A stretch of DNA of 16,979 bases from a virus (IMGVR_UViG_2713896771_000020:1-16979), one strand, 5' to 3'. Shown: positions 3,818 through 15,566, counted from the first letter of the stretch. Numbers and translations: made by a program. The notes: a model not told the origin generated them from the sequence alone.

Positions 3818-5025
3818 TCCGGTTTTTCTCCCTCGCTGATTTTTACTTCCTGTTTCCATGCCTGGCTGAACTCATCACCACCATCACGCGGTGACAGTCC
3901 TTCACGTTCGCGGGCTTCGTTCGGACACATAACGCCGGATTTGATGCCGCGCTCATAGGTGGCAAAGCGTTCGCCAGGTGTGGCCCGTAACAGGTCCGCG
4001 CTGTCAAACTCCACCTGATACCGGATACCAGGTACAGGCGAGGCCACCAGCAGGGCGTTTTTTATCTGCTGCTCAAAGTTCGCCAGCCACGGGCGCATCG
4101 TCATGGTGAGAAATGCGCGGCTTGCCTCGCTGAAATTGCTGTAGGTGCTGTTGCTGTATTCCTGCAAAAAAATCGGCGAGACGTTGAACATTCTGGCGAT
4201 GTCTTCAATGGTGAAGCGACGGGAGGCCAGCCATTCAGCATCCTGATTACTCATGCCCAGCTGCTGATAGCTCATACCCCCTTCAAGGATGGGCGTTTTT
4301 CCGGCGTTTCTGGCCCCTTTGTAGCGTTCCAGTGCGGCTAATGCCTGTTTGCCCTTCACGCCGTCCAGCCATTCGCCTGACGTGATAACCCCTGCCGCCA
4401 TCATGCCATCACGCATCACGCTCGCGCCGTGGCGTTGTTGGGCCAGCCCAAGCCCCAGCGATTCGCGGCAGATGGTTACAGGTGAGCGCCCCATAAAACC
4501 GTCATCCGTGGAGTAACGAAGGTGGAGAACCTCCCACGGTAAATAGTTGCGGGTGTTTCCGGTGTAAGCGTCAGTGATGCAGTAGCGCCAGTTGTGTTCT
4601 CCTGTCTGCTCCATGTTCACCGACTGCGGCGGGTAAGGATGCAAAGCCGCCGGAAAACCATCACGCCCCCACTGAATCACCGCGTAAGCATTACCGTTTA
4701 ACAGGCAGTGGCGGATCATCATTCGCTTAAACTGGTAGGGAGTCTGCCACGCGTTCGGGCGCTCGTTGAGGATGTGATCGACCGGATGAGAATCAAGCCA
4801 CTCGCGGGCCTCCTTCCCCTTCTCATTGCGTACCAGGTACAGGTAACACGGCATGGTAGCCACCGCCTCAGAGATGACCGTCACGGCGTTCATGACGGCG
4901 GGCAGTGATTCCGCTGTCCCCGATGATACGTACTCACCCGCCCCCGTGTTCGATGTGCCAGCCAGCGCCATAAACTCATCAAGCGTCATGCTGCGCTGCT
5001 CTTTTTTTCTTCTGAAAGGCCACAT
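3814..5025 (-). CDS. Portal protein (HK97 family)
   Basis: 403-aa ORF with size and composition of HK97-type portals. GGGGG Shine-Dalgarno 6 nt upstream of ATG 5023-5025. Flanked by protease and adaptor genes. Confidence 0.85.
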   Translation of the reverse strand: MWPFRRKKEQRSMTLDEFMALAGTSNTGAGEYVSSGTAESLPAVMNAVTVISEAVATMPCYLYLVRNEKGKEAREWLDSHPVDHILNERPNAWQTPYQFKRMMIRHCLLNGNAYAVIQWGRDGFPAALHPYPPQSVNMEQTGEHNWRYCITDAYTGNTRNYLPWEVLHLRYSTDDGFMGRSPVTICRESLGLGLAQQRHGASVMRDGMMAAGVITSGEWLDGVKGKQALAALERYKGARNAGKTPILEGGMSYQQLGMSNQDAEWLASRRFTIEDIARMFNVSPIFLQEYSNSTYSNFSEASRAFLTMTMRPWLANFEQQIKNALLVASPVPGIRYQVEFDSADLLRATPGERFATYERGIKSGVMCPNEAREREGLSPRDGGDEFSQAWKQEVKISEGEKPE

Positions 5026-5026
5026 A

Positions 5027-5599
5027 TCACACCCCCGCTAAATCCGCCCACCAGCGGCGATTATCCGCACGCGGCATTTTTTCGGGGTGCTGCTCGTACA
5101 GGGAGCGGCGGGCCAGCTCCACGCCGGAATCAGGGTAAGCCGGTACGGATGTGACGGTAATTTCGTACAGTTCCGCAACCAGCACGGTGCGCACGCATGG
5201 ATCTGTTGTGGTATCCCATACATCCTTACGGGAACGAAAGCCAAAGCTCATGCCGGATATATCACCACGCTTAACCAGTTCGATAACGTCGCGCCCTGTA
5301 CTGGTATCCGGTGGGGTCAGTTCAAAGCGTAACCCTGTTTCATCCTCTTCCAGTTTCAGCGTGCCGGAACGGGTGCGCCCCAGTAACATACTGTGGTCAT
5401 GCTCATACAGGCCGCGAACGTCATTACCCGCCGCAAGCCATTCAGTAAACGCCCCCCGCTGGAATTTTTCGTAAAACTCACCCCATAACAGTTCTGAAAG
5501 CTTATCCCAGCGAACAACGTAGCCTGTAAGCGTGTTGCTGCCGCTGGTGGTGATTTCCGATGACCGGATTTCCATACTCTTCATAATTTTTTCACCCAT
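5027..5599 (-). CDS. Prohead maturation protease (HK97 family)
   Basis: 190-aa ORF; motif LYEHDHSMLLGRTRSGTL typical of HK97-type prohead proteases. Start among ATGs at 5597, 5582 or 5573 is uncertain. Confidence 0.8.
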   Translation of the reverse strand: MGEKIMKSMEIRSSEITTSGSNTLTGYVVRWDKLSELLWGEFYEKFQRGAFTEWLAAGNDVRGLYEHDHSMLLGRTRSGTLKLEEDETGLRFELTPPDTSTGRDVIELVKRGDISGMSFGFRSRKDVWDTTTDPCVRTVLVAELYEITVTSVPAYPDSGVELARRSLYEQHPEKMPRADNRRWWADLAGV

Positions 5600-5638: not shown

Positions 5639-6796
5639 TTAATCGTCGTCCTGTGGCAGTTCCAGAATCTTGATCGCGTTCGAATCCACCACGCCACCGC
5701 CTAAATATTTCTGCGTGAAAATTTTGATGAAGCCCGGCTCTGTGAGGTTGTCCGGTCTGGTGCGAACACCTGTTTCGTGATCAACAATGTAGTAACCGCG
5801 TTTGAAGTCACCCAGGGCAATAACGTTATCAGGCATAAACTCCAGATATTCGACCGGAAGGCCCAGCAACGTATCAGGATCACCCGCCTGTAAACGGTCG
5901 CGCCAGATATAATCACCGTTCGCGTTCTTCACCTTCTGGAGTTTTGCCGCCGTCGTGGAGTTAACCACCCAGACCGCGTTTTTGCGGTATTTTTTACGTA
6001 ATGCAAATTTCAGGTCGATCAGCGGGTCCGCAGATGTCCACGCCAGAGATTCGGAAGGTTTAATTACCTGTAACGTACCAAAATCACGCTCTTTGTCGTT
6101 CTTCTCTGCACGGGGTACGGATAAAAAGCCTTTTGCTTTTTTGTCACCATCGCCCACAACCAGATCGCTTTCTTCGGTTTCCGTGAAGGTGTCGCCAATC
6201 TCACCCGTCAGCCATGAAAGGATGTCCACATCGGAAAAATCCACGATTTCCTGTGTGGTGCGCGGGTACGCATAGACCGGATACAGCTTAATGCTCACCT
6301 CGTTAATCTGCGGGGTGCTGGTCTGTTCGCGTGCCTTACCCTCTTCACCGTGGTTAACGGTCGCACCGCCAGCGGAAACAAGCTGCTTAAACTCGTTGCT
6401 GCTGATTTTCTTCACGGTACAGATGCGGCGCATGGTGGATTCATCCGCCAGCATTCGCATGATTTCGGTGTTCAGTTCAGGGATAACGGTATAACCACCA
6501 TCAGCGGGAACGCCTGTACTTAATGCGCGGGTTTCACCTGTCAGAATGTAGTTGCGGAGTTCTGCGGGGTCAGTGGTCTGACTGCTTTTACCTGGCTTGC
6601 TGCGCTCTTCGTCTGCAATGGCTTCAAGGCGGGAAATGTCTTTATCGAGGGATTCAGCTTTAGCGCGTAATTCGTCAAATGTTGCGCCCTCAGCATCGTT
6701 AAGACTGCGGTTTTCTTTTTCCGCGTTCTCCAGCATGTCGCGCATCTGATTTTTAATGGCGGTTTTCTGCTGGCGTAATTCGATTATTCTCGGCAT
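5639..6796 (-). CDS. Major capsid protein, HK97 fold, with N-terminal scaffold-like (delta) domain
   Basis: 385-aa ORF. N-terminal ~100 aa is charged and coiled-coil-like (ELRQQKTAIKNQMRDMLENAEKENRSL...), followed by a capsid-like body. Adjacent prohead protease. Confidence 0.88.
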   Translation of the reverse strand: MPRIIELRQQKTAIKNQMRDMLENAEKENRSLNDAEGATFDELRAKAESLDKDISRLEAIADEERSKPGKSSQTTDPAELRNYILTGETRALSTGVPADGGYTVIPELNTEIMRMLADESTMRRICTVKKISSNEFKQLVSAGGATVNHGEEGKAREQTSTPQINEVSIKLYPVYAYPRTTQEIVDFSDVDILSWLTGEIGDTFTETEESDLVVGDGDKKAKGFLSVPRAEKNDKERDFGTLQVIKPSESLAWTSADPLIDLKFALRKKYRKNAVWVVNSTTAAKLQKVKNANGDYIWRDRLQAGDPDTLLGLPVEYLEFMPDNVIALGDFKRGYYIVDHETGVRTRPDNLTEPGFIKIFTQKYLGGGVVDSNAIKILELPQDDD

Positions 6797-7050
6797 AAAA
6801 AAAGTCCTGGGGTTAAGTAAGGAACTCCAGGACGCGGCAAAAACTCAACCGTTTTTCATAAGGAAATCAGCAATCGCACCGATCGTTTTCCCGCCTGGTA
6901 ATGAATATTGGCGAGAACATTAACAGGCGGAAAAGTGGCCCCAGCGTCCTGGCACCACGGGCGAGAATAATCATGATTCAGTTCGGGTAAAATATGCCGA
7001 TCCTGTCAGTGAACAACGTGGAACAACCGCGAACAAATAATTTACAAAAA
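6797..7050 (-). promoter_or_regulatory. Leader and promoter region of the capsid/packaging operon
   Basis: 254-bp non-coding gap. Three 10-bp-phased TTGTTC repeats (7011-7036) lie upstream of a candidate -10 TATTTT (~6989-6994). Hairpin 6804-6833 followed by T7 abuts the capsid ATG. Confidence 0.5.
7011..7036 (-). repeat. Three direct repeats GAACAA (TTGTTC on the minus strand) at exact 10-bp spacing
   Basis: Plus strand reads GAACAAcgtgGAACAAccgcGAACAA at 7011-7016, 7021-7026 and 7031-7036. Confidence 0.9.
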
Positions 7051-7055
7051 ATGAC

Positions 7056-7083
7056 AAAAAGCCGGATTGCTCCGGCTGTATGC
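7056..7083 (-). terminator. Rho-independent terminator
   Basis: Stem GCCGGA/TCCGGC (7061-7066 and 7071-7076) with loop TTGC, followed on the minus strand by TTTTTGTCATTTTTT. Near-identical copy at 7408-7434. Confidence 0.75.
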
Positions 7084-7087
7084 GTGC

Positions 7088-7312
7088 TCAGTCCCTGATC
7101 CCTTTCAGAAATTCTATCAATGCATCTATCTGTTCAGGATTTACCGCCAGCATTTCACCGGACAGAGCACATCTCACAAAACCATGCTGATCCTTTTCAA
7201 TCAGTGCGCCCGTCTCCAGGAATGCGCGGTAATCATTGATGCTCATCGTCTCCATGTTGTCAGCATGGTATTTATCACGCTGTTTTAATATCTCATCAAA
7301 TTTCATCGGCAT
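7088..7312 (-). CDS. Hypothetical 74-aa protein in a moron-like cassette
   Basis: ATG at 7310-7312 with AGAGGA Shine-Dalgarno 8 nt upstream (MPMKFDEILKQRDKYH...). Bracketed by two near-identical intrinsic terminators. Confidence 0.55.
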   Translation of the reverse strand: MPMKFDEILKQRDKYHADNMETMSINDYRAFLETGALIEKDQHGFVRCALSGEMLAVNPEQIDALIEFLKGIRD

Positions 7313-7407
7313 TGTTTTTTCCTCTGTTGTGTCTGTTTGTTTCAGATAGTAACTATGCCTGACCGTGACGAAAACCCGGTAATGCGCCATACCGTTTCAA
7401 CTGGTGC

Positions 7408-7434
7408 AAAAAAAGCCGGATTTCTCCGGCTGTG
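7408..7434 (-). terminator. Rho-independent terminator (second copy of the same element)
   Basis: Stem GCCGGA/TCCGGC (7415-7420 and 7425-7430) with loop TTTC, followed on the minus strand by T7. Immediately after the stop of the 7438-7710 gene. Confidence 0.8.
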
Positions 7435-7437
7435 TGA

Positions 7438-7710
7438 TTAGCTGTCCTGGTAATTTCGCCATATTTCATCACCAGCACCATCCATACCCATTTCGGCATA
7501 AGTGCGATCGACCGCCTTTTTCAGGTCTCCGTAATTATCCGGCGGCTCCGGTGGCCTCTGTGCCTTCCTGGAACATTCCAGCCGTCGCATCGTAACCTGA
7601 TGCCGTTCCTTGTCTGTCTCCACCAGCAGCATGACTTCACCCCATCGCGCCGACGCCCTCCGGTAAAAGCCTTTTGCCTCGAGTTCCTCCGCTATGCGGT
7701 CATGTACCAT
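7438..7710 (-). CDS. Hypothetical 90-aa protein
   Basis: ATG at 7708-7710 with GAGGGGG Shine-Dalgarno, just downstream of the ssb stop. The longer ORF-track start overlaps ssb out of frame and is rejected. Confidence 0.5.
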   Translation of the reverse strand: MVHDRIAEELEAKGFYRRASARWGEVMLLVETDKERHQVTMRRLECSRKAQRPPEPPDNYGDLKKAVDRTYAEMGMDGAGDEIWRNYQDS

Positions 7711-7720
7711 CGTCACCCCC

Positions 7721-8131
7721 TCAGAACGGAATATCATCACCGTAGGGGTCATCGTCTCCCGCTGGTGGCTGATTACCCTGTGTGCCTGTGGTTTTGCGTC
7801 TGTTCCCGCCAGGACGTGCCGCACGGGCACTGATTACGCTGTCTGCAATAACCTGATACCCCTGCCGTGTTTCCCCGTTCTGTCCGGTCCACTGGCTTAC
7901 CTGCATCGTGCCGGATACGCTGGCAACATCGCCTTTTTGATGTTTAGCCAGGAAATCGGCCTGTTTGCCAAATGCGATAACCGATAACCATAACGTCGCC
8001 TGTCCGTCATGTGCCTGGCTGCATGGCAACGATACCGCCATACGCGCCAGAGTCATCGGTGTGCCCTTGCTGCTCTGTTTTACCAGCGGGTCGTCCACCA
8101 GGCGCCCGTAAGCTGCAATTTGTGCTGTCAT
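7721..8131 (-). CDS. ssb: Single-stranded DNA-binding protein with acidic C-terminal tip
   Basis: 136-aa ORF with SSB-like core (TLWLSVIAFGKQADFLAKHQKGDVASVSGTMQVSQW), Gly-rich linker and C-terminal DDDPYGDDIPF, the conserved SSB tail. GAGGTGG Shine-Dalgarno. Confidence 0.8.
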   Translation of the reverse strand: MTAQIAAYGRLVDDPLVKQSSKGTPMTLARMAVSLPCSQAHDGQATLWLSVIAFGKQADFLAKHQKGDVASVSGTMQVSQWTGQNGETRQGYQVIADSVISARAARPGGNRRKTTGTQGNQPPAGDDDPYGDDIPF

Positions 8132-8140
8132 ATTGCCACC

Positions 8141-8446
8141 TCAGTGAAGCGATCCGGCGTTGTTCTTTTTCATCTCTTCCATCATTTTTTCAGTGAGCAT
8201 TACGCACTGAAAACCCATGTTTTTGATGTCTACGGGTTTCATGCCTTTGTCAGTGGATATCACAGGCAGAATATCCTGATACACATCGCGGTCAGGGTAA
8301 CTAAGCACACAAAGCGCCCATGATGCCACGGGTGAGGATCCTTCGTCTGTTTCAACCCACCAGCCTGGTGTAGCTGCGCTTATTTGCAGAATCGTGATCA
8401 GTCCGTTGTGCTTGTAAAGTTTTTCACCAAATTTTGGTTCGCTCAT
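8141..8446 (-). CDS. Hypothetical 101-aa protein
   Basis: ATG 8444-8446 with GGAGAGGTGG Shine-Dalgarno. ATGA overlap with the upstream gene. No recognisable motif. Confidence 0.5.
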   Translation of the reverse strand: MSEPKFGEKLYKHNGLITILQISAATPGWWVETDEGSSPVASWALCVLSYPDRDVYQDILPVISTDKGMKPVDIKNMGFQCVMLTEKMMEEMKKNNAGSLH

Positions 8447-8694
8447 GATTCCACCTCTCCGGTTTTAACGTTGATGGTTGTTACCTGTTCCGCTTCGGCA
8501 ATCTCCCGTTCTGTCAGCGTGGCAAAGTTTGCCGCCGCCGTGGTCATGAATGCGCTTATCAGGTCGGGATGTTCCTTCGCGTATCCTTCCCGCGTGTGGC
8601 GGTCTATCGTTCTGATTGCCACCTTTAAGGTGTGCTCAGTCATGTCTAACGCTTTATATTTTGGCTCTGTTCTGTCTCTGCGTTTTTGGGTCAT
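8443..8694 (-). CDS. Hypothetical 83-aa protein (start uncertain: 8694, 8724 or 8643)
   Basis: In-frame ORF translationally coupled to the downstream gene. Its upstream region overlaps the iteron array. Confidence 0.4.
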   Translation of the reverse strand: MTQKRRDRTEPKYKALDMTEHTLKVAIRTIDRHTREGYAKEHPDLISAFMTTAAANFATLTEREIAEAEQVTTINVKTGEVES

Positions 8695-8703
8695 TTCTCG
8701 CAA

Positions 8704-8897
8704 CCTCTCACTTTTTCGCCTCACTTTTTCAAGCGTCTCACTTCGTCGCAGCTGGGATTTTCGGTTTTTCTATGTGTGTGTTTCATAAGTATTTTTTTAC
8801 CCCTCACTTTTGAGGATGTATACAGGTCGAAAAGTGAGGGAGAGCAGGCTAATTTTGGCCCTCTTTCTATCCACCTCGCTTTTGCTCCTCACTTTTA
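8704..8897. repeat. Iteron array, putative replication origin of the island
   Basis: CTCACTTTT-type repeats at 8707, 8720, 8737 (degenerate), 8803, 8874 (degenerate) and 8888, plus one inverted copy AAAAGTGAG at 8830-8838. Adjacent AT-rich tract 8783-8800. Lies immediately 3' of the replicase gene. Confidence 0.65.
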
Positions 8898-10295
8898 TAG
8901 CGGCGCTACATCATCCCCATCGATACGAATAACCCCATCTTTTTCCAGCTTGTACAGCCAGCGCCGGAAGTTTTTCATTTCATACCCCAGCTTTTTCATG
9001 TCATCACGTAACAGCGGGATCGTGCACTTGTCGCCGTTCTGTGTGCGTGAACGGATGCACCCCCATAAAGCGGTATGGTTTTCCGTCTTGTTCCCGGCCT
9101 CCTCGATGCGCTCCAGTTCAACAGGAGGGCGCGGATCATCCACCACCACCAGCGACGTGATTAATTCACCGTCAGCGTCGGTAAAAAGCTCCACCACGCG
9201 TAAGTCATATGCGGCTTCTTTGAGTTCCTCCGCGTCCTTCATTTTGGTGCATGAGATAACCAGCGCTTCGCTTCCTGCGTCCTCCCTGCGTATCCGGTAT
9301 TCAGCATCCAGCGAAGCACGAAATGCACTGGAACCGCGCGCGCCTTTCGTCTCATCCTTGCCGGAATGGTGAACCACCAGCACCGTGGCCCCTGTGCGTC
9401 GTTTCAGTTCGTCACAACCACGGATAAACGCCCCCATATCACGGGAATCATTTTCATCATTCCCACCAAAGCAACGCGCCAGCGTATCCAGAATAATCAT
9501 GCGAACAGGTTTACCCGTTTCCCGCTCCACCTGACGGGCAGCGATAACCATTTCATCAACATCAAGCGGGGCAGCCGGAAAGATGGGGCGGTTTACCAGA
9601 TACAGATTTTTCACCTGCTCATCGTGCACAACCTCCCAGGCTTTTACACGACGCGGAACACCTATACCGCCTTCACCAACCACATAGAGAACCGCACCAT
9701 GCGCAACCCTGCGGCCTCCCCACTGGCGACCAGTGGCAACATGGCACGCCCACGATCCGGCAAGGAATGATTTATAGGACCCGCTAGCCCCGTATATGCT
9801 GCATAGCGATACCGCCGGAATAATCCCCTTAACCACGTAATCCAGTTGCGTGTCGTATCCGGTAGATCCAACGCTCATCGGTAGCGTGGTTTTTCGCTGG
9901 TGGTTTTTTTCTTCCGCCGGCTCTTTCCCACGCACCCGTTCCAGGTATTCGCGCCAGTTCTCCCGCATATGGCTGTGCATCCCTTCGGGGTAATAATTCG
10001 CATCAGTTACACCCGCCGCCGCCAGCTTGTGCGCAATGGCATTAATATTTGATGGCCTGATGTGGCCTGCCTTGTACAGCCGGACACAATAGCGCCCCTC
10101 GTCGATGATTCTCAGGTCTGCCAGTTCATCCAGTTGATCATCAGCCAGCACAACGGGAGGCACATTATCGCCAGCCAGTCGCCCGTCCTGTTCCTGCCAC
10201 TGTTTCGCATGTGCCCAGGCATCACTACCCGCAAAAATAATGACTTCGGTCATCTTGTCGTAAGGCTGTTTTTTTAAGTTCGGTGCGCTTTTCAT
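8895..10295 (-). CDS. Primase/replicase-type replication initiator with RecA-like (RepA/AAA_25-type) ATPase domain
   Basis: 466-aa ORF. P-loop-like YGASGSYKS, Walker B MIILDTL, and VVHHSGKD motif typical of RepA-like helicase loaders. ATGA coupling to the upstream gene. Confidence 0.75.
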   Translation of the reverse strand: MKSAPNLKKQPYDKMTEVIIFAGSDAWAHAKQWQEQDGRLAGDNVPPVVLADDQLDELADLRIIDEGRYCVRLYKAGHIRPSNINAIAHKLAAAGVTDANYYPEGMHSHMRENWREYLERVRGKEPAEEKNHQRKTTLPMSVGSTGYDTQLDYVVKGIIPAVSLCSIYGASGSYKSFLAGSWACHVATGRQWGGRRVAHGAVLYVVGEGGIGVPRRVKAWEVVHDEQVKNLYLVNRPIFPAAPLDVDEMVIAARQVERETGKPVRMIILDTLARCFGGNDENDSRDMGAFIRGCDELKRRTGATVLVVHHSGKDETKGARGSSAFRASLDAEYRIRREDAGSEALVISCTKMKDAEELKEAAYDLRVVELFTDADGELITSLVVVDDPRPPVELERIEEAGNKTENHTALWGCIRSRTQNGDKCTIPLLRDDMKKLGYEMKNFRRWLYKLEKDGVIRIDGDDVAPL

Positions 10296-10591
10296 TTCTT
10301 GCCCCTGAATACGTTAAGCATCTTTTTTATTTCCTGAATATTGGCGCGTGCTTTCTCCCTGCTGGTTGGTTTACTGCGGGGCGCTGCCTGTACCAGAGAA
10401 AAATCACGCCGGAACTGATAAACAGGCATCACGCAGTCATATTCGTAGCCTTCACGGCGGTAGGTAATGCGTCGCTCTTCTACACCTTTAATCGTTACGG
10501 TGCCGCCGTACTGGTCGCGGTAAATATCGCCGCGCGTAAATTTAGGGTGAGTGTTGCCACTGGCAGTTAAGCCAGAATATTTAAGTTTCAT
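10292..10591 (-). CDS. Hypothetical 99-aa protein
   Basis: ATG 10589-10591; intact ORF in the same operon directly upstream of the replicase. Confidence 0.5.
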   Translation of the reverse strand: MKLKYSGLTASGNTHPKFTRGDIYRDQYGGTVTIKGVEERRITYRREGYEYDCVMPVYQFRRDFSLVQAAPRSKPTSREKARANIQEIKKMLNVFRGKK

Positions 10592-10596
10592 TATTT

Positions 10597-10830
10597 TTAT
10601 TCTCCGGTGTGCTGTTCTTTATATCTGTCGTGCAATATATCTATTTCTTGCAGTTCCATTATTACAGGATCAAGAAGCGTTATTAATGCCGTGGCAATTC
10701 TTGATTTTTGTTTGTCGCGTTCATTGTCGCCAAGTGTTTCAAGCCATATGCGCAATATTTCCAGCATGTTTTCACTGTGAGAAAGTGCAAGAAATGCGCG
10801 GTCTATTGTTTGGTGGTAAATATCACGCAT
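10597..10830 (-). CDS. Hypothetical 77-aa protein, AT-rich gene
   Basis: ATG 10828-10830 with GAGGA Shine-Dalgarno. Local GC visibly lower than flanking genes. Confidence 0.5.
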   Translation of the reverse strand: MRDIYHQTIDRAFLALSHSENMLEILRIWLETLGDNERDKQKSRIATALITLLDPVIMELQEIDILHDRYKEQHTGE

Positions 10831-11272
10831 GGCTTACATCCTCAGGAAATTTTCTTCTATAACGCGCCTCTGCCACATATTCCGCATAATCGGCGGCGAT
10901 ATTCAGTACATCAAGCCCCGTTGATTTATATTCTCTCGTGGAAAGTAAGAAAAAAGCCGCTCTAATAAGTTCTGGCATTGACGAAAGCGCATCAGCCGCA
11001 TCATCAGGAACGCCGGAAAATTCCTGTTTCAGGGAATTAAAACGATCATCACGCATAACCCCCCCCCCATTTTCACAATCAGCAACAAGAATATTTTTAG
11101 CGTCATTCAGCGACCGCGTTGCGGTGTATCGGATACATTCCAGGGCGAATAGTGTGTATTCTTCCCTTTCTTCCTTTTGTGCAAGCTCTGCTGTGCATTC
11201 AATATCAATAAGCGCGTGCATCAGCGTAGTGAGTGCGGCGGCGGCTGCGTCCGGTGTGGTTTTATTGCACAT
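10823..11272 (-). CDS. Hypothetical 149-aa protein containing a G10 homopolymer tract
   Basis: ATG 11270-11272 with GGAGGGG Shine-Dalgarno. The coding strand carries GGGGGGGGGG (plus-strand C10 at 11059-11068) encoding ENGGGV. Confidence 0.5.
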   Translation of the reverse strand: MCNKTTPDAAAAALTTLMHALIDIECTAELAQKEEREEYTLFALECIRYTATRSLNDAKNILVADCENGGGVMRDDRFNSLKQEFSGVPDDAADALSSMPELIRAAFFLLSTREYKSTGLDVLNIAADYAEYVAEARYRRKFPEDVSHA

Positions 11273-11492
11273 GTACCCCTCCGCATTTTTTTTCGTTAGA
11301 AATAAGCGTTCTTCTTTCCTGTTCATCGATCAGGAATACGCAGACCTCACCGCTAAGGCGTTTAAGTAAGCCGATGATTGCCCCTGATTCGCTGTCGGTC
11401 ATCATGCCTGGGTAATCCTCTGCCAGTGCGCAAATAACTTCGATTTGGTGGGCGCGTTCTACTGCCTGTTGTAGTGTGATTTCCTGGCTCAT
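11262..11492 (-). CDS. Hypothetical 76-aa acidic protein
   Basis: ATG 11490-11492 overlapping the stop of the upstream gene (ATGA). No recognisable motif. Confidence 0.5.
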   Translation of the reverse strand: MSQEITLQQAVERAHQIEVICALAEDYPGMMTDSESGAIIGLLKRLSGEVCVFLIDEQERRTLISNEKKCGGVHVQ

Positions 11493-11689
11493 AAGCCTAC
11501 CCCCTGACGAATACGGGCAGCGAATACCATCACGCAGCCAGCCGGGGATTGCAGGCGTGCTTCCTGTTCGCTGGTGGCCTCAATGGTAATCACGCGCGGT
11601 TGTGCAGTGCTCAGGGCGATAAAACGCCAAATGTATTTATTCAGGTTGTGCGAGTCCCGCCCTTGCGGGTGTGTGGTATGATTTCTCAT
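11489..11689 (-). CDS. Hypothetical 66-aa protein, first gene of the leftward early operon
   Basis: ATG 11687-11689 with GAGGT Shine-Dalgarno (MRNHTTHPQGRDSHNLNKYIWRF...). The ORF-track 381-aa extension upstream is non-coding promoter sequence. Confidence 0.5.
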   Translation of the reverse strand: MRNHTTHPQGRDSHNLNKYIWRFIALSTAQPRVITIEATSEQEARLQSPAGCVMVFAARIRQGVGL

Positions 11690-11885
11690 AGCTACCTCGA
11701 TACTCTCGTTATCGTTGGTGGTTAGAAGCCCCGTTACTGCTCCTACAGTGCGGGGTTTCGTCGTTTCTGCACCTTGCATTAACAAGGTGTAAGTAACTTT
11801 ATTTATAGGTGGCTTACATGTCAATGCTTTTATGTAAGACTTTTTATGTGTATATTGTCTTACACTTTCATTGAGAGGATTACAG
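11690..11885. promoter_or_regulatory. Divergent promoter/operator switch region
   Basis: Minus-strand promoter: perfect -35 TTGACA (11819-11824), 17-nt spacer, -10 TAAAGT (11796-11801). Plus-strand candidate -10 TATATT (11851-11856). Inverted repeats CTTACAT/ATGTAAG (11814-11820 and 11833-11839), TGTAAGAC/GTCTTACA (11834-11841 and 11858-11865), CACCTTG-N6-CAAGGTG (11770-11789). Confidence 0.6.
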
Positions 11886-12191
11886 ATGGCTACAGGTTCA
11901 AAAAACGCAAAATCACAATCACTGACAGCTCGGATCCCGCATGATGTTATTGAAGGCATGGAATCCGTAAAACTGGACGGTGAAAGCAACGCCGGATTCA
12001 TAGTAACCGCCATGCGCGGTGAAATCGCCCGCCGCCAGGCAGAAGGAAGCGGAGAAAACCTCCTGATTTCTTCGCTCAATGCACTGGCGCAGGTGGAAAA
12101 ACTCGGAATCAAAGCCGCCGAGGAGATCGGGCAGCTCGTCACTGTCGCACGTGAAGAACTCCAGCGCCGCAAGACTAAAGAACCAGAGTAA
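11886..12191 (+). CDS. Small ribbon-helix-helix-like DNA-binding protein, candidate island repressor
   Basis: ATG 11886 with GAGAGGA Shine-Dalgarno. N-terminal beta-strand/helix pattern SLTARIPHDVIEGMESVKLDGESNAGFIVTAMRGEIARRQ resembles Arc/CopG-type folds. Divergent from the early operon. Confidence 0.5.
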   Translation: MATGSKNAKSQSLTARIPHDVIEGMESVKLDGESNAGFIVTAMRGEIARRQAEGSGENLLISSLNALAQVEKLGIKAAEEIGQLVTVAREELQRRKTKEPE

Positions 12192-12248
12192 TCACCATCA
12201 GCGCCGTGGTGTAAGGTATTACGGCGCATTGCTATGCAGGACAACACA

Positions 12249-12422
12249 ATGACCGATAAAGAATTGACCAAAACATTATCACCGGCACGGAAAAGACGGC
12301 GCAGAAAGATAGAGCATGAATCAGAAAGATTCGCGCCATGTGCTTTTGCCCTTGAGCAATTCCTTAAAGAGTACAGGGAAAAGCGCTCATTGCAGGTATG
12401 GCAACGAACTGAACCAGACTGA
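12249..12422 (+). CDS. Hypothetical 57-aa basic protein
   Basis: ATG 12249 with AGGA Shine-Dalgarno 7 nt upstream (MTDKELTKTLSPARKRRRRK...). Second gene of the short plus-strand operon. Confidence 0.4.
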   Translation: MTDKELTKTLSPARKRRRRKIEHESERFAPCAFALEQFLKEYREKRSLQVWQRTEPD

Positions 12423-12517
12423 TTGCATTGCCCACCAGCCTGATAGCGGCTATCATCCCCGTGCTTATGTTTGGGATCACATACACAAACGGCGCAGCGG
12501 GTTATCTGTTCAGAAAG

Positions 12518-12545
12518 GCGGCTCCATTTCGGGGCCGCTTTTTTT
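12518..12545 (+). terminator. Rho-independent terminator of the plus-strand regulator operon
   Basis: 8-bp stem GCGGCTCC/GGGGCCGC with one G-U pair and loop ATTTC, followed by T7. A second AU-rich hairpin CTGAAAAAC/GTTTTTCAG lies at 12550-12579. Confidence 0.7.
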
Positions 12546-12691
12546 ATACCTGAAAAACCCCAATTTTGTTGTTTTTCAGTTTCACCAGGGCGAACGAATC
12601 CCCGCCCACGTTCTGGCGTATATTCAATCTTCATGGTTATGGCTCTGTGTTCAGATGATTGATGTGTGGCGGCTGCGTGCCGCCAGCGTGA

Positions 12692-12880
12692 TTAATGAAC
12701 TGCCTTGCAGCTATCCTTCCAGGCCAGAACCTCGGATAAAGACCAGCCAACGGAACGACCGCCAAGTTTACGACGTGATGGGAATTGTCCGGCCTTTTCC
12801 AGGCGGTAGCGGCATGAGCGGCTAAGGCCTGTTAGCTTTTCGCATTCTTTTTCACGTATAAACCGATCAGTGCTTAACAC
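12692..12880 (-). CDS. alpA: AlpA-family (excisionase-like) transcriptional regulator
   Basis: 62-aa protein; core LTGLSRSCRYRLEKAGQFPSRRKLGGRSVGWSLSEVLAWKDS matches the AlpA/Xis-like winged-helix signature. GTG start with GGGGG Shine-Dalgarno. Immediately downstream of int in the same orientation. Confidence 0.85.
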   Translation of the reverse strand: MLSTDRFIREKECEKLTGLSRSCRYRLEKAGQFPSRRKLGGRSVGWSLSEVLAWKDSCKAVH

Positions 12881-13163
12881 TATTGCCCCCTTTCGTTTCT
12901 TAAAGAGTTATTTCGTGTTCTATTGCGTTGGGATGTGTCTGATTGTGTCAGGATGATTCAGAGTTGGCAAATGTTGAGGCCGTATGGTTTACAGAAAGAG
13001 GAATAATCAGGATAAAATCATTTAAATTCATGTTAATACAAAGGCATAAAATATTGTTTCATGCCTTTTTTCTCGCTATTTAAAGAGTGATTCGCTAGTG
13101 TATAAAAAACCAGTAACACATTAAAAATCAGCTACTTATAAATCTGTACACTTTTTCGCCTCT

Positions 13164-13208
13164 TGTTCGTAGTTGTTCCGCATTGTTGCTCATTGTTGCA
13201 CGTTGTAT
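13164..13208 (+). repeat. Four to five direct repeats TTGTT(C/G) at 10-bp spacing
   Basis: TTGTTC at 13164 and 13174, TTGTTG at 13184 and 13194, degenerate TTGTAT at 13203. Same motif and phasing as the arrays at 7011-7036 and 14539-14574. Confidence 0.85.
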
Positions 13209-13221
13209 CTGTTCGCATATC

Positions 13222-13237
13222 CAGTATGCGCATACTG
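13222..13237. promoter_or_regulatory. Perfect 16-bp palindrome CAGTATGCGCATACTG
   Basis: Exact dyad symmetry directly adjacent to the repeat array, in the int-alpA intergenic region. No flanking U-run, so a protein site is more likely than a terminator. Confidence 0.5.
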
Positions 13238-13254
13238 AAAAAATACGAAAAAAA

Positions 13255-14484
13255 TTATTTTCTTCTGGCTACTGGTAGCGTGGTTACGTTTTCATGTGTT
13301 CCCGCCAGTATCCCTAACCGCTCCATCCACATATCCAGCACATTGCGTTTAGCATCCAGATAACGGGAATGATTATAAACTCGCTGCATTCCTGGCATCT
13401 GGTGGCCTGTAAGCTGCTCCACGACATGCGGATCAACGCCTAAATCGTTCAGCATGGTTGTAAAGGTGCGCCGGATGTCATGCAGTGACCAGTGAGGATG
13501 ATTAAGCCTCCTGTGCGCTAATCTTCCATACTGCGATACGCTGGCCTCCTGTTTCACTTCCCCCAGCAATAAGCCCGTGTGCCTGTTCTGCTCCACCAGC
13601 TGCGTGACGAACGGCAGGATCGCTTCCGGTATGGGCCGGAATATTGCGACCTTCGTTTTGCTGTGCTCCTTCGGAACGGTCCATAGCATTTCCGTAAAAT
13701 CCCACTCCCCGATCTCCGATAGCCTCAGTTCTACCGTCCTGGCTCCGAAGACAATCAGGAGGCGGATTAACGCGACGTAGTAAGGGGAAAATATTTTTTT
13801 GTCCAGTGCCTGCAATAATTCGCCAAGTTCTTTGTTACTTAAGACACGTTCGCTTATATCCGGTTTTTTCCCAACGTCCGCCACGTTCAGATCGTCCAGA
13901 ACGTTGCTGATTGCATAGCGCCGCCTACGGCAGAACTTAAGCGCCTGTTTGCACGCCTGTAGCACGAATCCGGCAGTAACAGGCGTTCGCTTTGCCACCT
14001 GGTCAAAACAGGCCAGCCAGTGCCGTAGCTCGCATTTATCCAGCGGCATAGCACCAATCTGCTGTATTACGTGATTATTAAGTCGCCTTTTCAGGGCGAT
14101 ATAATCCACGCGGTTTTCCTTTACGTAATACTCAAGCCAGTAGGTGAGCGCATCGCCAACCGTTACGGGCTTTAACGCTTCCTGTACGGTGTAATTCATC
14201 TCATGACGTGGATTTTTCCCCTCAGCCAGCCATGTGCGACACTGTGCGGCTTTTTCCCTGGCTGCTTTCAGGCTCAGATCAGGATAACTTCCCAGCTTAA
14301 TGCGTTCGGGTCGTGTCTCCCTTCCCGTTCCGGCCCTGTATGTGAAATACCAGGTCAATTTCCCTGATGTTAAATATTTCACGCTCAGGTTTCCGCCATC
14401 ACTATAAAACGTGTTTTTCTCCGCTGGCTTACCATGAAGTTTCCTTAGCAAGGTATCGCTCAGTTTGTTCATTGCTCTGCTCAC
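13255..14484 (-). CDS. int: Tyrosine site-specific integrase (P4-like family)
   Basis: 409-aa ORF; C-terminal catalytic region with HDIRRTF ... LTGHQ ... RVYNHSRY (R, H-x-x-R, Y). GTG start 14482-14484 with AGAGGGGG Shine-Dalgarno; alternative ATG at 14472. Adjacent to the insertion junction. Confidence 0.9.
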   Translation of the reverse strand: MSRAMNKLSDTLLRKLHGKPAEKNTFYSDGGNLSVKYLTSGKLTWYFTYRAGTGRETRPERIKLGSYPDLSLKAAREKAAQCRTWLAEGKNPRHEMNYTVQEALKPVTVGDALTYWLEYYVKENRVDYIALKRRLNNHVIQQIGAMPLDKCELRHWLACFDQVAKRTPVTAGFVLQACKQALKFCRRRRYAISNVLDDLNVADVGKKPDISERVLSNKELGELLQALDKKIFSPYYVALIRLLIVFGARTVELRLSEIGEWDFTEMLWTVPKEHSKTKVAIFRPIPEAILPFVTQLVEQNRHTGLLLGEVKQEASVSQYGRLAHRRLNHPHWSLHDIRRTFTTMLNDLGVDPHVVEQLTGHQMPGMQRVYNHSRYLDAKRNVLDMWMERLGILAGTHENVTTLPVARRK

Positions 14485-14507
14485 GTTTTACCCCCTCTTT
14501 ACGAAAA

Positions 14508-14531
14508 AGTGACTACACCAGTGACTACACC
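14508..14531. repeat. Perfect tandem 12-bp direct repeat AGTGACTACACC x2 in the int promoter region
   Basis: Copies at 14508-14519 and 14520-14531, about 25 bp upstream of the int start codon. Confidence 0.9.
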
Positions 14532-14538
14532 GATCGTT

Positions 14539-14574
14539 GCACAAAGGGCTACAACGTGAAACAAGCTGGAACAA
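14539..14574 (-). repeat. Four 10-bp-phased TTGT repeats upstream of int
   Basis: Plus strand has ACAA at 14541, 14551, 14561 and 14571. Minus strand reads TTGTTC, TTGTTT, TTGTAG, TTGTGC at exact 10-bp intervals. Confidence 0.8.
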
Positions 14575-14660
14575 GGAAAATCACAAATCTGTTGATAATC
14601 AAAAACATAATGCACAGCCTGAAACATTATGAAACAGCAAAAAACACTAAATGATAAAAT

Positions 14661-15566
14661 GCTGTTATTCTTAACCCGCTGGTGCAACACATGGTCCGCT
14701 GGCGAGTGCCGCGTGTACTGGCGGTGTCGATTTTGATGACCATCATCGTGATGGCGATGGTGTTGCTATTAGCTTATCTGGGTTCCGCGCTCAACGAGTT
14801 GACGCGGACGTTACCGCAATATCGCAACTCTATTATGACGCCGCTGCAAGCTCTTGAGCCGTTGTTGCAACGCGTAGGGATTGACGTCTCAGTTGACCAG
14901 CTGGCGCATTACATTGATCCGAACGCGGCGATGACGTTGCTCACCAACTTATTGACGCAGTTATCTAATGCCATGTCATCAATATTTTTATTGCTGCTGA
15001 CGGTGCTGTTTATGCTGCTCGAAGTGCCACAATTGCCCGGAAAATTTCAGCAAATGATGGCGCGTCCGGTTGAAGGGATGGCGGCGATTCAACGTGCAAT
15101 TGACAGTGTTTCTCATTATCTGGTGCTGAAAACAGCCATCAGCATCATCACCGGCCTGGTCGCCTGGGCGATGCTCGCCGCACTCGATGTTCGCTTCGCT
15201 TTTGTCTGGGGATTGCTGGCCTTTGCGCTTAATTACATCCCTAATATTGGTTCAGTTCTCGCGGCAATCCCCCCTATCGCTCAGGTACTGGTGTTTAATG
15301 GCTTCTACGAAGCGTTGCTGGTGCTGGCGGGATATCTGCTGATTAATCTGGTCTTCGGCAATATTCTGGAGCCGCGCATCATGGGACGTGGGCTGGGGCT
15401 TTCCACATTGGTGGTATTTTTGTCGTTGATTTTTTGGGGATGGTTGTTAGGACCGGTGGGTATGCTGCTTTCCGTGCCGTTAACAATTATTGTCAAAATT
15501 GCGCTTGAACAAACAGCGGGAGGTCAAAGCATCGCCGTTCTGTTAAGCGATCTCAATAAAGAGTGG
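14661..15566 (+). pseudogene. tqsA: 5'-truncated tqsA (AI-2 exporter, AI-2E family), disrupted by the island
   Basis: Translation from 14661 reads [22 protein letters not shown]... through the conserved AI-2E transporter body. An in-frame stop at 14652-14654 and AT-rich island DNA lie immediately upstream, so the N-terminal transmembrane segment and promoter are absent. 3' limit set by the expected stop near 15564, which is TGG in this sequence. Confidence 0.7.

Follow-up and report, generated by a model that had tools for sequence, protein, structure and literature searches.

Which protein reads the short direct repeats, spaced exactly one helical turn apart, that recur at the control points of an Escherichia coli satellite? 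The DNA analysed here (IMGVR_UViG_2713896771_000020:1-16979, 16,979 nucleotides, hereafter the window) contains an E. coli capsid-forming phage-inducible chromosomal island (PICI) of the EcCIEDL933 type, inserted in tqsA. An earlier note on this DNA had placed arrays of TTGTT-type units upstream of the capsid operon, upstream of int and downstream of int, and had suggested that a single regulator, most plausibly the island's AlpA or a helper-encoded factor, couples excision and integration to late capsid expression. The arrays are real, conserved and confined to the island. They are probably operators of AlpA, which we predict to act at them both as a directionality factor of the Vis/Xis type and as an activator, linking excision, alpA and the capsid genes. 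Experiments have established AlpA as the master regulator of Gram-negative and capsid-forming PICIs, and no AlpA operator or binding site for PICIs was found in the literature searched; the paper on the AlpA of CP4So gives no AlpA site.

Phased arrays in the island and its relatives

The three arrays lie where the earlier note had put them and their 10-bp phase is exact; only minor refinements of the coordinates were needed. Array 1 (7007-7036, minus strand) consists of three exact 10-bp units, TTGTTCGCGG TTGTTCCACG TTGTTCACTG. Two weaker upstream units (TTGTCATTTT, TTGTAAATTAT) carry it to 7057, so that five units can be read when a single 11-bp step is accepted. Array 2 (13163-13212, plus strand) has five units, TTGTTCGTAG TTGTTCCGCA TTGTTGCTCA TTGTTGCACG TTGTATCTGT, and runs opposite to all the other arrays. 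Array 3 (14535-14574, minus strand) has four 10-bp units, TTGTTCCAGC TTGTTTCACG TTGTAGCCCT TTGTGCAACG, and an extra TTGTGAT unit after a 12-bp step extends it to 14586; it sits between a pair of tandem 12-mers and the core of the attachment (att) site. About 15 bp from that core is array 3b (14621-14647, minus strand), with three units of the GAAACA/TGTTTC type (GAAACATTAT GAAACAGCAA AAAACAC). A further island array lies outside the window, at 6847-6876 of L001, a RefSeq-annotated locus with an identical right end and island. The left-end array, the tandem 12-mers beside both arm arrays and the position of array 3 inside an att arm are additions to the earlier note.

Matches to TTGTTN5TTGTT with at most one mismatch number 11; 200 shuffles that preserve dinucleotides gave 1.75 on average and 7 at most. 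TTGT chains of three or more units at exactly 10 bp were seen three times, where 1000 first-order Markov simulations gave an expectation of 0.003. A scan for chains of any 4-mer (at least three units, 10 bp) recovered only the three noted array sites and 14621-14647, with eight chain calls against 0.39 expected. The TTGT chains are direct repeats of three to five units with an exact spacing of one helical turn. The consensus unit is TTGT-T-C-(C/G)-a-n-g, with information at positions 5-7 and little at positions 8-10.

Ten islands were examined, the window island and nine relatives (window/L001, L002 and L005-L011); apart from L002, they are integrated at tqsA, phoQ/roxA, smrA/abgR, clpS/cspD or thiM/rcnR. 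The relatives were taken from complete E. coli genomes, and a contig scan with Int as query gave one locus, the Shigella island L002. L005 (O157) and the capsid-forming L006, which has a primase, are at phoQ/roxA. L007, at smrA/abgR, has a DUF5906 primase, a protease-capsid fusion and no annotated PerC. L008 and L010, at clpS/cspD, encode AlpA proteins about 60% identical to that of the window; L009 is EcCICFT073 itself; and L011, at thiM/rcnR, has a divergent integrase. The int-alpA region is present, with most of its length, in 877 of 5,426 complete E. coli genomes, and roughly 1,200 E. coli islands have an integrase of this clade.

A motif scan of the island and these relatives, as the earlier note had suggested, found the arrays again in the spacer between int and alpA and in each att arm. 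In the nine E. coli islands for which both ends were read, a (C)GAACAA array stands beside tandem 12-mers in both arms, and L002 has the array in its int-proximal arm. Array 3 is identical in L002, L005, L006 and L009, with its cores preserved in L007; array 3b is retained in L005, L006 and L009, and L008 has an equivalent made of two CGAACAC units. Repeats occur in the region upstream of alpA in all ten islands, as clear arrays in seven; they are degenerate in L008 and L010, and L011 has only a TTGTTCG and GTTCG pair. The counterpart of array 2 has six units in L006 and in EcCICFT073, where they lie 285-338 bp upstream of alpA and are accompanied by the same arm arrays, and three exact units in L007 (six in register, one broken). 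Array 1 is conserved in L002 and L006.

The arm and int-alpA arrays are always inside the island. At eight loci, phased chains of any 4-mer were found at 31 places across 106 kb of island sequence and at one place in 153 kb of flanking chromosome. In gap-free alignments of orthologous arrays, 1/60 columns of the TTGT core vary compared with 11/90 other columns (Fisher p=0.028), and the int-alpA arrays of L006, L007 and L009 differ in spacers and unit number while core and phase are kept.

Att arms and the candidate binder

Both arm arrays of the window island are directly preceded, on the plus strand, by two tandem copies of GTGACTACACC(A/G). The pair adjoining array 3 (GTGACTACACCA GTGACTACACCG, 14509-14532, plus strand) provides the proposed int-proximal arm-type sites, and the left-arm pair (ATGACTACACCA GTGACTACACCG, L001 6811-6834 in plus-strand reading) adjoins the left array. 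Copies of the 12-mer, exact or with one mismatch, are found within the island only at those two places. The two pairs flank the core in the same orientation, at 143.5 and 89.5 bp from its centre, and the two arm modules are direct duplicates of one another over about 80 bp. The integrase gene itself (int, 13255-14484, minus strand) encodes a P4-type tyrosine integrase with an arm-binding domain (Pfam Arm-DNA-bind_3 E=1.5e-18, Phage_integrase E=2.9e-16). Co-oriented tandem 12-bp repeats together with such an integrase make up a P4-type attP. Phage P4 (L004, X51522) likewise has co-oriented tandem 12-bp pairs, annotated in GenBank as 'attP arm sequence repeat' (3942-3965, 4151-4174), at 134 and 75 bp from the core centre. 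Array 3, which the earlier note had described as upstream of int, lies inside an att arm with the 12-mers and has a counterpart in the other arm; it probably serves excision and not control of the int promoter. In published reporters of the near-identical EcCICFT073 module, AlpA had no effect on Pint (PMC6092414).

The candidate for this job is encoded next door. The alpA gene (12692-12880, minus strand, GTG start) adjoins int in the same orientation and encodes, within the integration module, a small helix-turn-helix protein of 62 aa (WP_000953271; Pfam PF05930 Phage_AlpA, E=5e-18). It is 44% identical to P4 Vis, a member of the same Pfam family, and 92-98% identical to the AlpA of L005-L007; the AlpA of L006 and of EcCICFT073 are the same protein (WP_000953274.1). 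The core LTG..R..RY..EK.G.FPSR..LGGRSVGW is constant in all relatives, including the alleles of about 60% identity. The only solved relative in the AlpA family is PDB 8C3T (E=2.6e-6), for which no publication was found.

Directionality factors bind direct repeats one helical turn apart, head-to-tail, and bend att DNA (PMC7498355). P4 Vis binds attP in mobility shift and footprinting assays and regulates late promoters, as cited in PMC2603039. The earlier note's point that phased direct repeats are the binding mode of Xis/Vis/AlpA-type proteins agrees with both sources. We propose that the TTGTTC(C/G) units are operator half-turn sites on which AlpA would load head-to-tail along one face of the DNA. 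Such sites would be occupied at five places on the island: two in the int-proximal arm, one in the distal arm, one upstream of alpA and one at the capsid operon. On the arm arrays, AlpA would bend the arms and help the integrase to assemble an excisive complex at attL and attR. AlpA is needed for induction and excision of PICIs (PMC6092414; bioRxiv 10.1101/2022.09.08.507074; PMC11773190), with its requirement for excision reported for EcCIMP1 (PMC11773190).

Could the reader of the arrays instead come from outside the island? A helper-phage or host protein, such as a helper Xis or a response regulator of the OmpR/PhoB type, seems to us an unlikely binder, though regulators of that type likewise bind direct repeats head-to-tail at 10-11 bp. 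The TorR box is CTGTTCATAT and the PhoP box TGTTTA-N5-TGTTTA. The array units have TGTTC in common with the tor boxes, and the int-alpA array of a Klebsiella capsid-forming island, 'Ant' (L003, vB_KppS-Ant, LR881103; AlpA 47% identical), reads CTGTTCATCA. A constant host factor would explain equally well why one motif serves AlpA alleles of about 60% identity, and the helper signal that switches on alpA was not identified in PMC6092414. The position of the arrays points the other way. In both arms of the nine E. coli islands the main arm array is 2-15 bp from the tandem 12-mers, the classic place of an element-encoded directionality factor, and the 153 kb of host flank holds no comparable array. 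Moreover, AlpA overexpressed alone, with no helper, suffices for excision, replication and activation of PalpA in EcCICFT073 (PMC6092414).

A second alternative exchanges the two motifs, so that the integrase N-domain has further arm-type sites in the arrays and the 12-mers belong to AlpA or another protein. Tyrosine integrases do use short direct repeats in the att arms as arm-type sites, and two or three of the five places are found there. Helper-embedded PICIs have two copies, in one orientation, of a tandem 12-bp doubled motif, at distances of 81 and 132 bp from the centre of attP (PMC10111431), and its authors left undecided whether Int or AlpA reads it. Their motif differs (TGTATTGC core), they describe it as not present in other PICIs, and no adjacent 10-bp arrays are reported (PMC10111431). 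The islands compared here make the exchange improbable. The integrase N-domain falls into three classes and the 12-mers change in step with it: K36-Y37-L38...K42 is paired with GTGACTACACC in class 1 (window), R-H-S...L with ATTAACTACACC in class 2 (L005-L010), and a more divergent N-domain with AACTGACCACAC in class 3 (L011). Differences between the window and L005 integrases are concentrated in this domain (19 among residues 1-66 and 19 among the other 343; p=2.6e-7). The array motif is unchanged across the classes, and AlpA is 98% identical between islands whose 12-mers differ. Because the 12-mers covary with the N-domain while the array motif stays constant, we assign the 12-mers to the arm domain of the integrase. 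The P4 record annotates its 12-mer pairs as arm repeats, and integrase arm sites as far from the core as the arrays upstream of alpA (1.4 kb) and before the capsid operon (7.6 kb) would be unprecedented. The covariation indicates that the integrase, rather than AlpA, reads the doubled attP motif in the PICI integrase clade studied. It would answer the question left open for helper-embedded PICIs, and the pairing of 12-mer with N-domain offers a rule for predicting att arms in this clade.

It is very unlikely that the arrays are replication-origin iterons of an island initiator: PICI and P4 origins do hold short repeated motifs, and the P4-type GGTGAACAG iterons of 'Ant' include TGTTC, but the same arrays persist with a RepA-family helicase, a P4-family primase or a DUF5906 primase (and with or without PerC), none adjoins a rep gene, and head-to-tail units phased at exactly 10 bp in both att arms do not resemble an origin. 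Just as improbably, the repeats would be non-functional remnants of duplicated att-arm modules spread by inter-island recombination, as the duplicated modules and a string common to several arrays (ACAACGTG-N-AACAA) might suggest; their cores are conserved more than their spacers, the varying int-alpA arrays keep core and phase, and the divergent L008, L010 and L011 carry this motif at matching positions in otherwise different array sequences.

We therefore assign the arrays to AlpA by elimination of less probable candidates and because the AlpA core is co-constant with the arrays, a weaker basis than the covariation behind the assignment of the 12-mers. What we infer is that AlpA is the binder, and the sign and mechanism of its action at each site.

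Two further candidates were considered and rejected. PerC was rejected as the binder: L005 and L009 have PerC and no capsid array, and L007, with no annotated PerC, still has the arm and int-alpA arrays. The antiterminator model of Pseudomonas AlpA and its AlpA-binding element (ABE) was rejected as well, as it involves a larger protein and a single GGGACG site, with no arrays. The P. aeruginosa protein is Q-like, uses GGGACG between -35 and -10, acts at the RNA exit channel and contacts DNA with residues 128-142 (PMC9371919); it is therefore much larger than the 62-aa AlpA.

Predicted action at alpA and at the capsid operon

Away from att, similar arrays stand upstream of alpA and before the capsid operon, where promoters are predicted. 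Array 2 lies past the end of int, 43 bp from its stop codon, and 283 bp upstream of the alpA start, in the spacer that separates the two genes. The earlier note had correctly located it downstream of int; it is better read as an upstream element of alpA. Autoactivation of AlpA at PalpA has been demonstrated experimentally in the near-identical EcCICFT073 module (PMC6092414), and the five units of array 2 would mediate it. The only sigma-70-like alpA promoter found is TTGCCA-17-CACAAT, at 12942-12970. A weaker phased block, GACACAATCA GACACATCCC AACGCAATAG AACACG (12914-12949, minus strand), overlaps its predicted -10, and blocks resembling it are also found in L005-L007.

Two other structures are present in this spacer. 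A perfect 16-bp palindrome, CAGTATGCGCATACTG (13222-13237), stands between the stop codon of int and array 2. L005 retains this palindrome and L006 and L007 lack it; it may be the site of a dimeric regulator, conceivably for the helper signal. Between array 2 and the predicted alpA promoter is a conserved hairpin, AAAGGCAT-N13-ATGCCTTT followed by GTATT (13040-13068, minus strand), which is preserved in L006 and L007 via a G-U change and could be a terminator or attenuator upstream of alpA.

Array 1 lies between the terminator of the early operon and the capsid operon, 211 bp upstream of the ATG of the major capsid gene, the first of the late operon (5639-6796, minus strand; Pfam Phage_capsid E=1.5e-61 and the RefSeq annotation of L001). 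Immediately upstream of the array is the intrinsic terminator at the end of the early operon (AGCCGGAGCAATCCGGCT followed by TTTTGT, 7054-7077, minus strand). The terminator at 7060-7077 is kept in all related islands just before the late module. A near-identical terminator lies at 7414-7431, and the two (AGCCGGAG(A/C)AATCCGGCT with a T-run) flank the last small ORF of the early operon. Adjoining the last unit of array 1 is a -35-like hexamer, CTGACA (7004-7009, minus strand), a putative promoter element. Following the early terminator and abutting this box, array 1 would make the capsid and packaging operon AlpA-dependent.

A sigma-70 scan upstream of the capsid operon gave no full consensus promoter, which fits an activator-dependent promoter. 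The conserved CTGACAGG follows the array in both variants of the capsid-forming late module, as judged by sequence comparison; -35 and -10 elements placed by eye disagreed between the two variants, and therefore only CTGACAGG is given here. The 200-nt capsid leader (6790-6995, minus strand) is strongly structured (minimum free energy -64.7 kcal/mol, z = -3.64) and ends, immediately before the capsid ATG, in a hairpin at 6797-6833 (GTCCTGG...CCAGGAC followed by U7). The only Shine-Dalgarno-like AGGA before the ATG sits within this stem. The hairpin looks like a terminator or a translational gate on the late operon, and the structured leader with its buried AGGA thus makes an extra layer of control likely.

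Counterparts of array 1 are found only with the HK97-type capsid-forming late module (window, L002, L006, L010 and L011); in L010 and L011 the array is built of CGAACAA-type units, and in every case it comes directly after the early-operon terminator. The other late modules (L005, L007, L008 and L009) have the terminator and no capsid-proximal array. The array that the earlier note reported at the capsid operon is thus present, as part of one late module and not as a general property of these islands. The idea of one AlpA-type regulator coupling excision to capsid expression fits all of the comparative evidence gathered here, once three corrections are made: array 3 as an att-arm element, array 2 as an upstream element of alpA, and array 1 as specific to the HK97-type module.

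The proposed mechanism is of a known type, represented by P4 Vis, 186 Apl and P2 Cox, and is not mechanistically new. Apl, Cox and P4 Vis also control promoters far from att via similar sites (PMC7498355). The sites of 186 Apl and P2 Cox, to which the arrays are comparable, are 6-bp direct repeats with 10-11 bp spacing, bound cooperatively by head-to-tail monomers at att and at distant promoters (PMC7498355). These proteins belong to an unrelated sequence family, however, repress face-to-face lytic and lysogenic promoters, and are encoded by the first genes of a phage lytic operon rather than by a satellite int-alpA module. The attL of prophage KplE1 has five sites for the directionality factor TorI in two blocks with cores GTTCG, GATCG and GTCCG, beside arm-type sites of the integrase IntS and overlapping Pint (PMC2951348). 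The GTTCG core is contained in the TTGTTCG units of the island, whereas TorI sites are described in attL only and have no known late-operon role. TorI was rejected as a member of PF05930, as the query sequence used fell below threshold, with only a sub-threshold HTH_17 match.

Satellite phage P4 offers the nearest precedent, by analogy, for AlpA linking excision to regulation. At 3973-4006, beside the int-proximal arm repeats, P4 has CGGA three times plus AGGA in exact 10-bp phase; a whole-genome 4-mer chain scan of P4 gave only this block and the 'ori type 2' repeats, and by analogy the block is likely a Vis site. P4 differs from the window island in the motif and in having a phased block beside one arm pair only. 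The distal target differs too, a full capsid and terminase operon in the window island versus sid-delta-psu in P4. Vis is described as a repressor of Pint (PMC7286903, PMC7498355), whereas the AlpA of PICIs activates its own gene, acts as master inducer and leaves Pint unaffected. The AlpA of EcCICFT073 and EcCIEDL933 are 95-98% identical to that of the window, autoactivating, and essential for induction, excision and transfer, and EcCICFT073, a classical PICI, has no capsid-proximal array. As for autoregulation in P4, Vis reportedly represses its own late promoter, a finding attributed to Polo in 1996.

Several observations weigh against AlpA as the common operator-binding protein. The link to AlpA comes from co-constancy with the motif and not from positive covariation, and AlpA alleles of about 60% identity (L008, L010, L011) keep the CGAACAA motif. 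Arrays in both arms are unlike lambda and unlike P4, where the phased block is at the int-proximal pair only. In 'Ant', phased arrays were found in the int-alpA spacer and none in the arms or before the capsid gene. Array 2 points the opposite way from the other arrays and lies about 200 bp upstream of the one sigma-70-like promoter found for alpA. The promoter of the capsid operon was not pinned down in the sigma-70 scan, and with a terminator-like hairpin at the end of the operon's leader, control may be other than simple activation.

We still favour AlpA as the binder. The candidate operator TTGTTC(C/G) in 10-bp head-to-tail arrays, with the five-site map, provides a testable regulon. It brings within reach the questions of how helper induction leads to excision, how AlpA autoactivates, and whether the capsid operon is wired to AlpA or to helper late regulators. 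A bolder version, which we regard as doubtful, is that AlpA is the single direct switch of the satellite, building a symmetric excisive complex on both arms and activating the capsid and terminase operon without a late activator from the helper. In this version the inverted array 2, at the 3′ end of int, could also drive transcription antisense to int and thereby prevent re-integration. If true, the single switch would account for capsid production by capsid-forming PICIs on their own timetable.

Island content and neighbouring features

The island is about 15.3 kb long and all but one of its genes are on the minus strand. The genes include int, alpA, a RepA-family helicase, a single-stranded DNA-binding protein (ssb) and PerC, with alpA-rep-ssb-perC as the early operon. 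The late genes are the major capsid, prohead protease, portal, head-tail connectors, HNH, TerS and TerL. The island thus has int, alpA, a replication module and a set running from capsid to TerL, and no tail or lysis genes, as in capsid-forming PICIs; this classification comes from Pfam matches and the RefSeq annotation of L001. EcCIEDL933-type islands have the same size and gene set, and their alpA is essential for induction and transfer (bioRxiv 10.1101/2022.09.08.507074).

The sole plus-strand gene (11871-12191) encodes a YlcI/YnfO-family protein, the ribbon-helix-helix ('RHH') protein of the earlier note, and has no associated phased TTGTT array. An Icd-like pseudogene follows alpA on the minus strand (within the region 11489-12634). 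A scan of the window against Rfam matched no family.

A different array phased at 10-11 bp, (T)GTCAC x4, was seen in L007 (6300-6334), L008 (7063-7098) and L010 (3511-3546), near the left island end, beyond the last late gene, and is a possible packaging (TerS) site; no exact equivalent was seen in the window's island.

The int-alpA spacer of 'Ant' (7130-7324) contains three distinct 10-bp arrays, CATTCAACAG x4, GACACGTAAC x3 and TGTTCATC x5. Its attP arms both carry tandem 12-mers (TGTATAAACA; 4850-4871, 5083-5104), and its GGTGAACAG iterons lie between the primase and capsid genes. With arrays confined to the spacer, 'Ant' was rejected as an independent replicate of the multi-site design.

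The insertion splits tqsA, an AI-2 (autoinducer 2) transporter gene, and TGCTGTTAT is duplicated at both junctions; the copy at 14660-14668 forms the core and the right junction, with the other copy at the left junction. A 144-bp 5′ fragment of tqsA is kept at the left end (L001 6601-6744). The 3′ part (window 14682-15560) keeps an in-frame ORF with a GTG start at the right junction, and thus a shortened TqsA might still be made.

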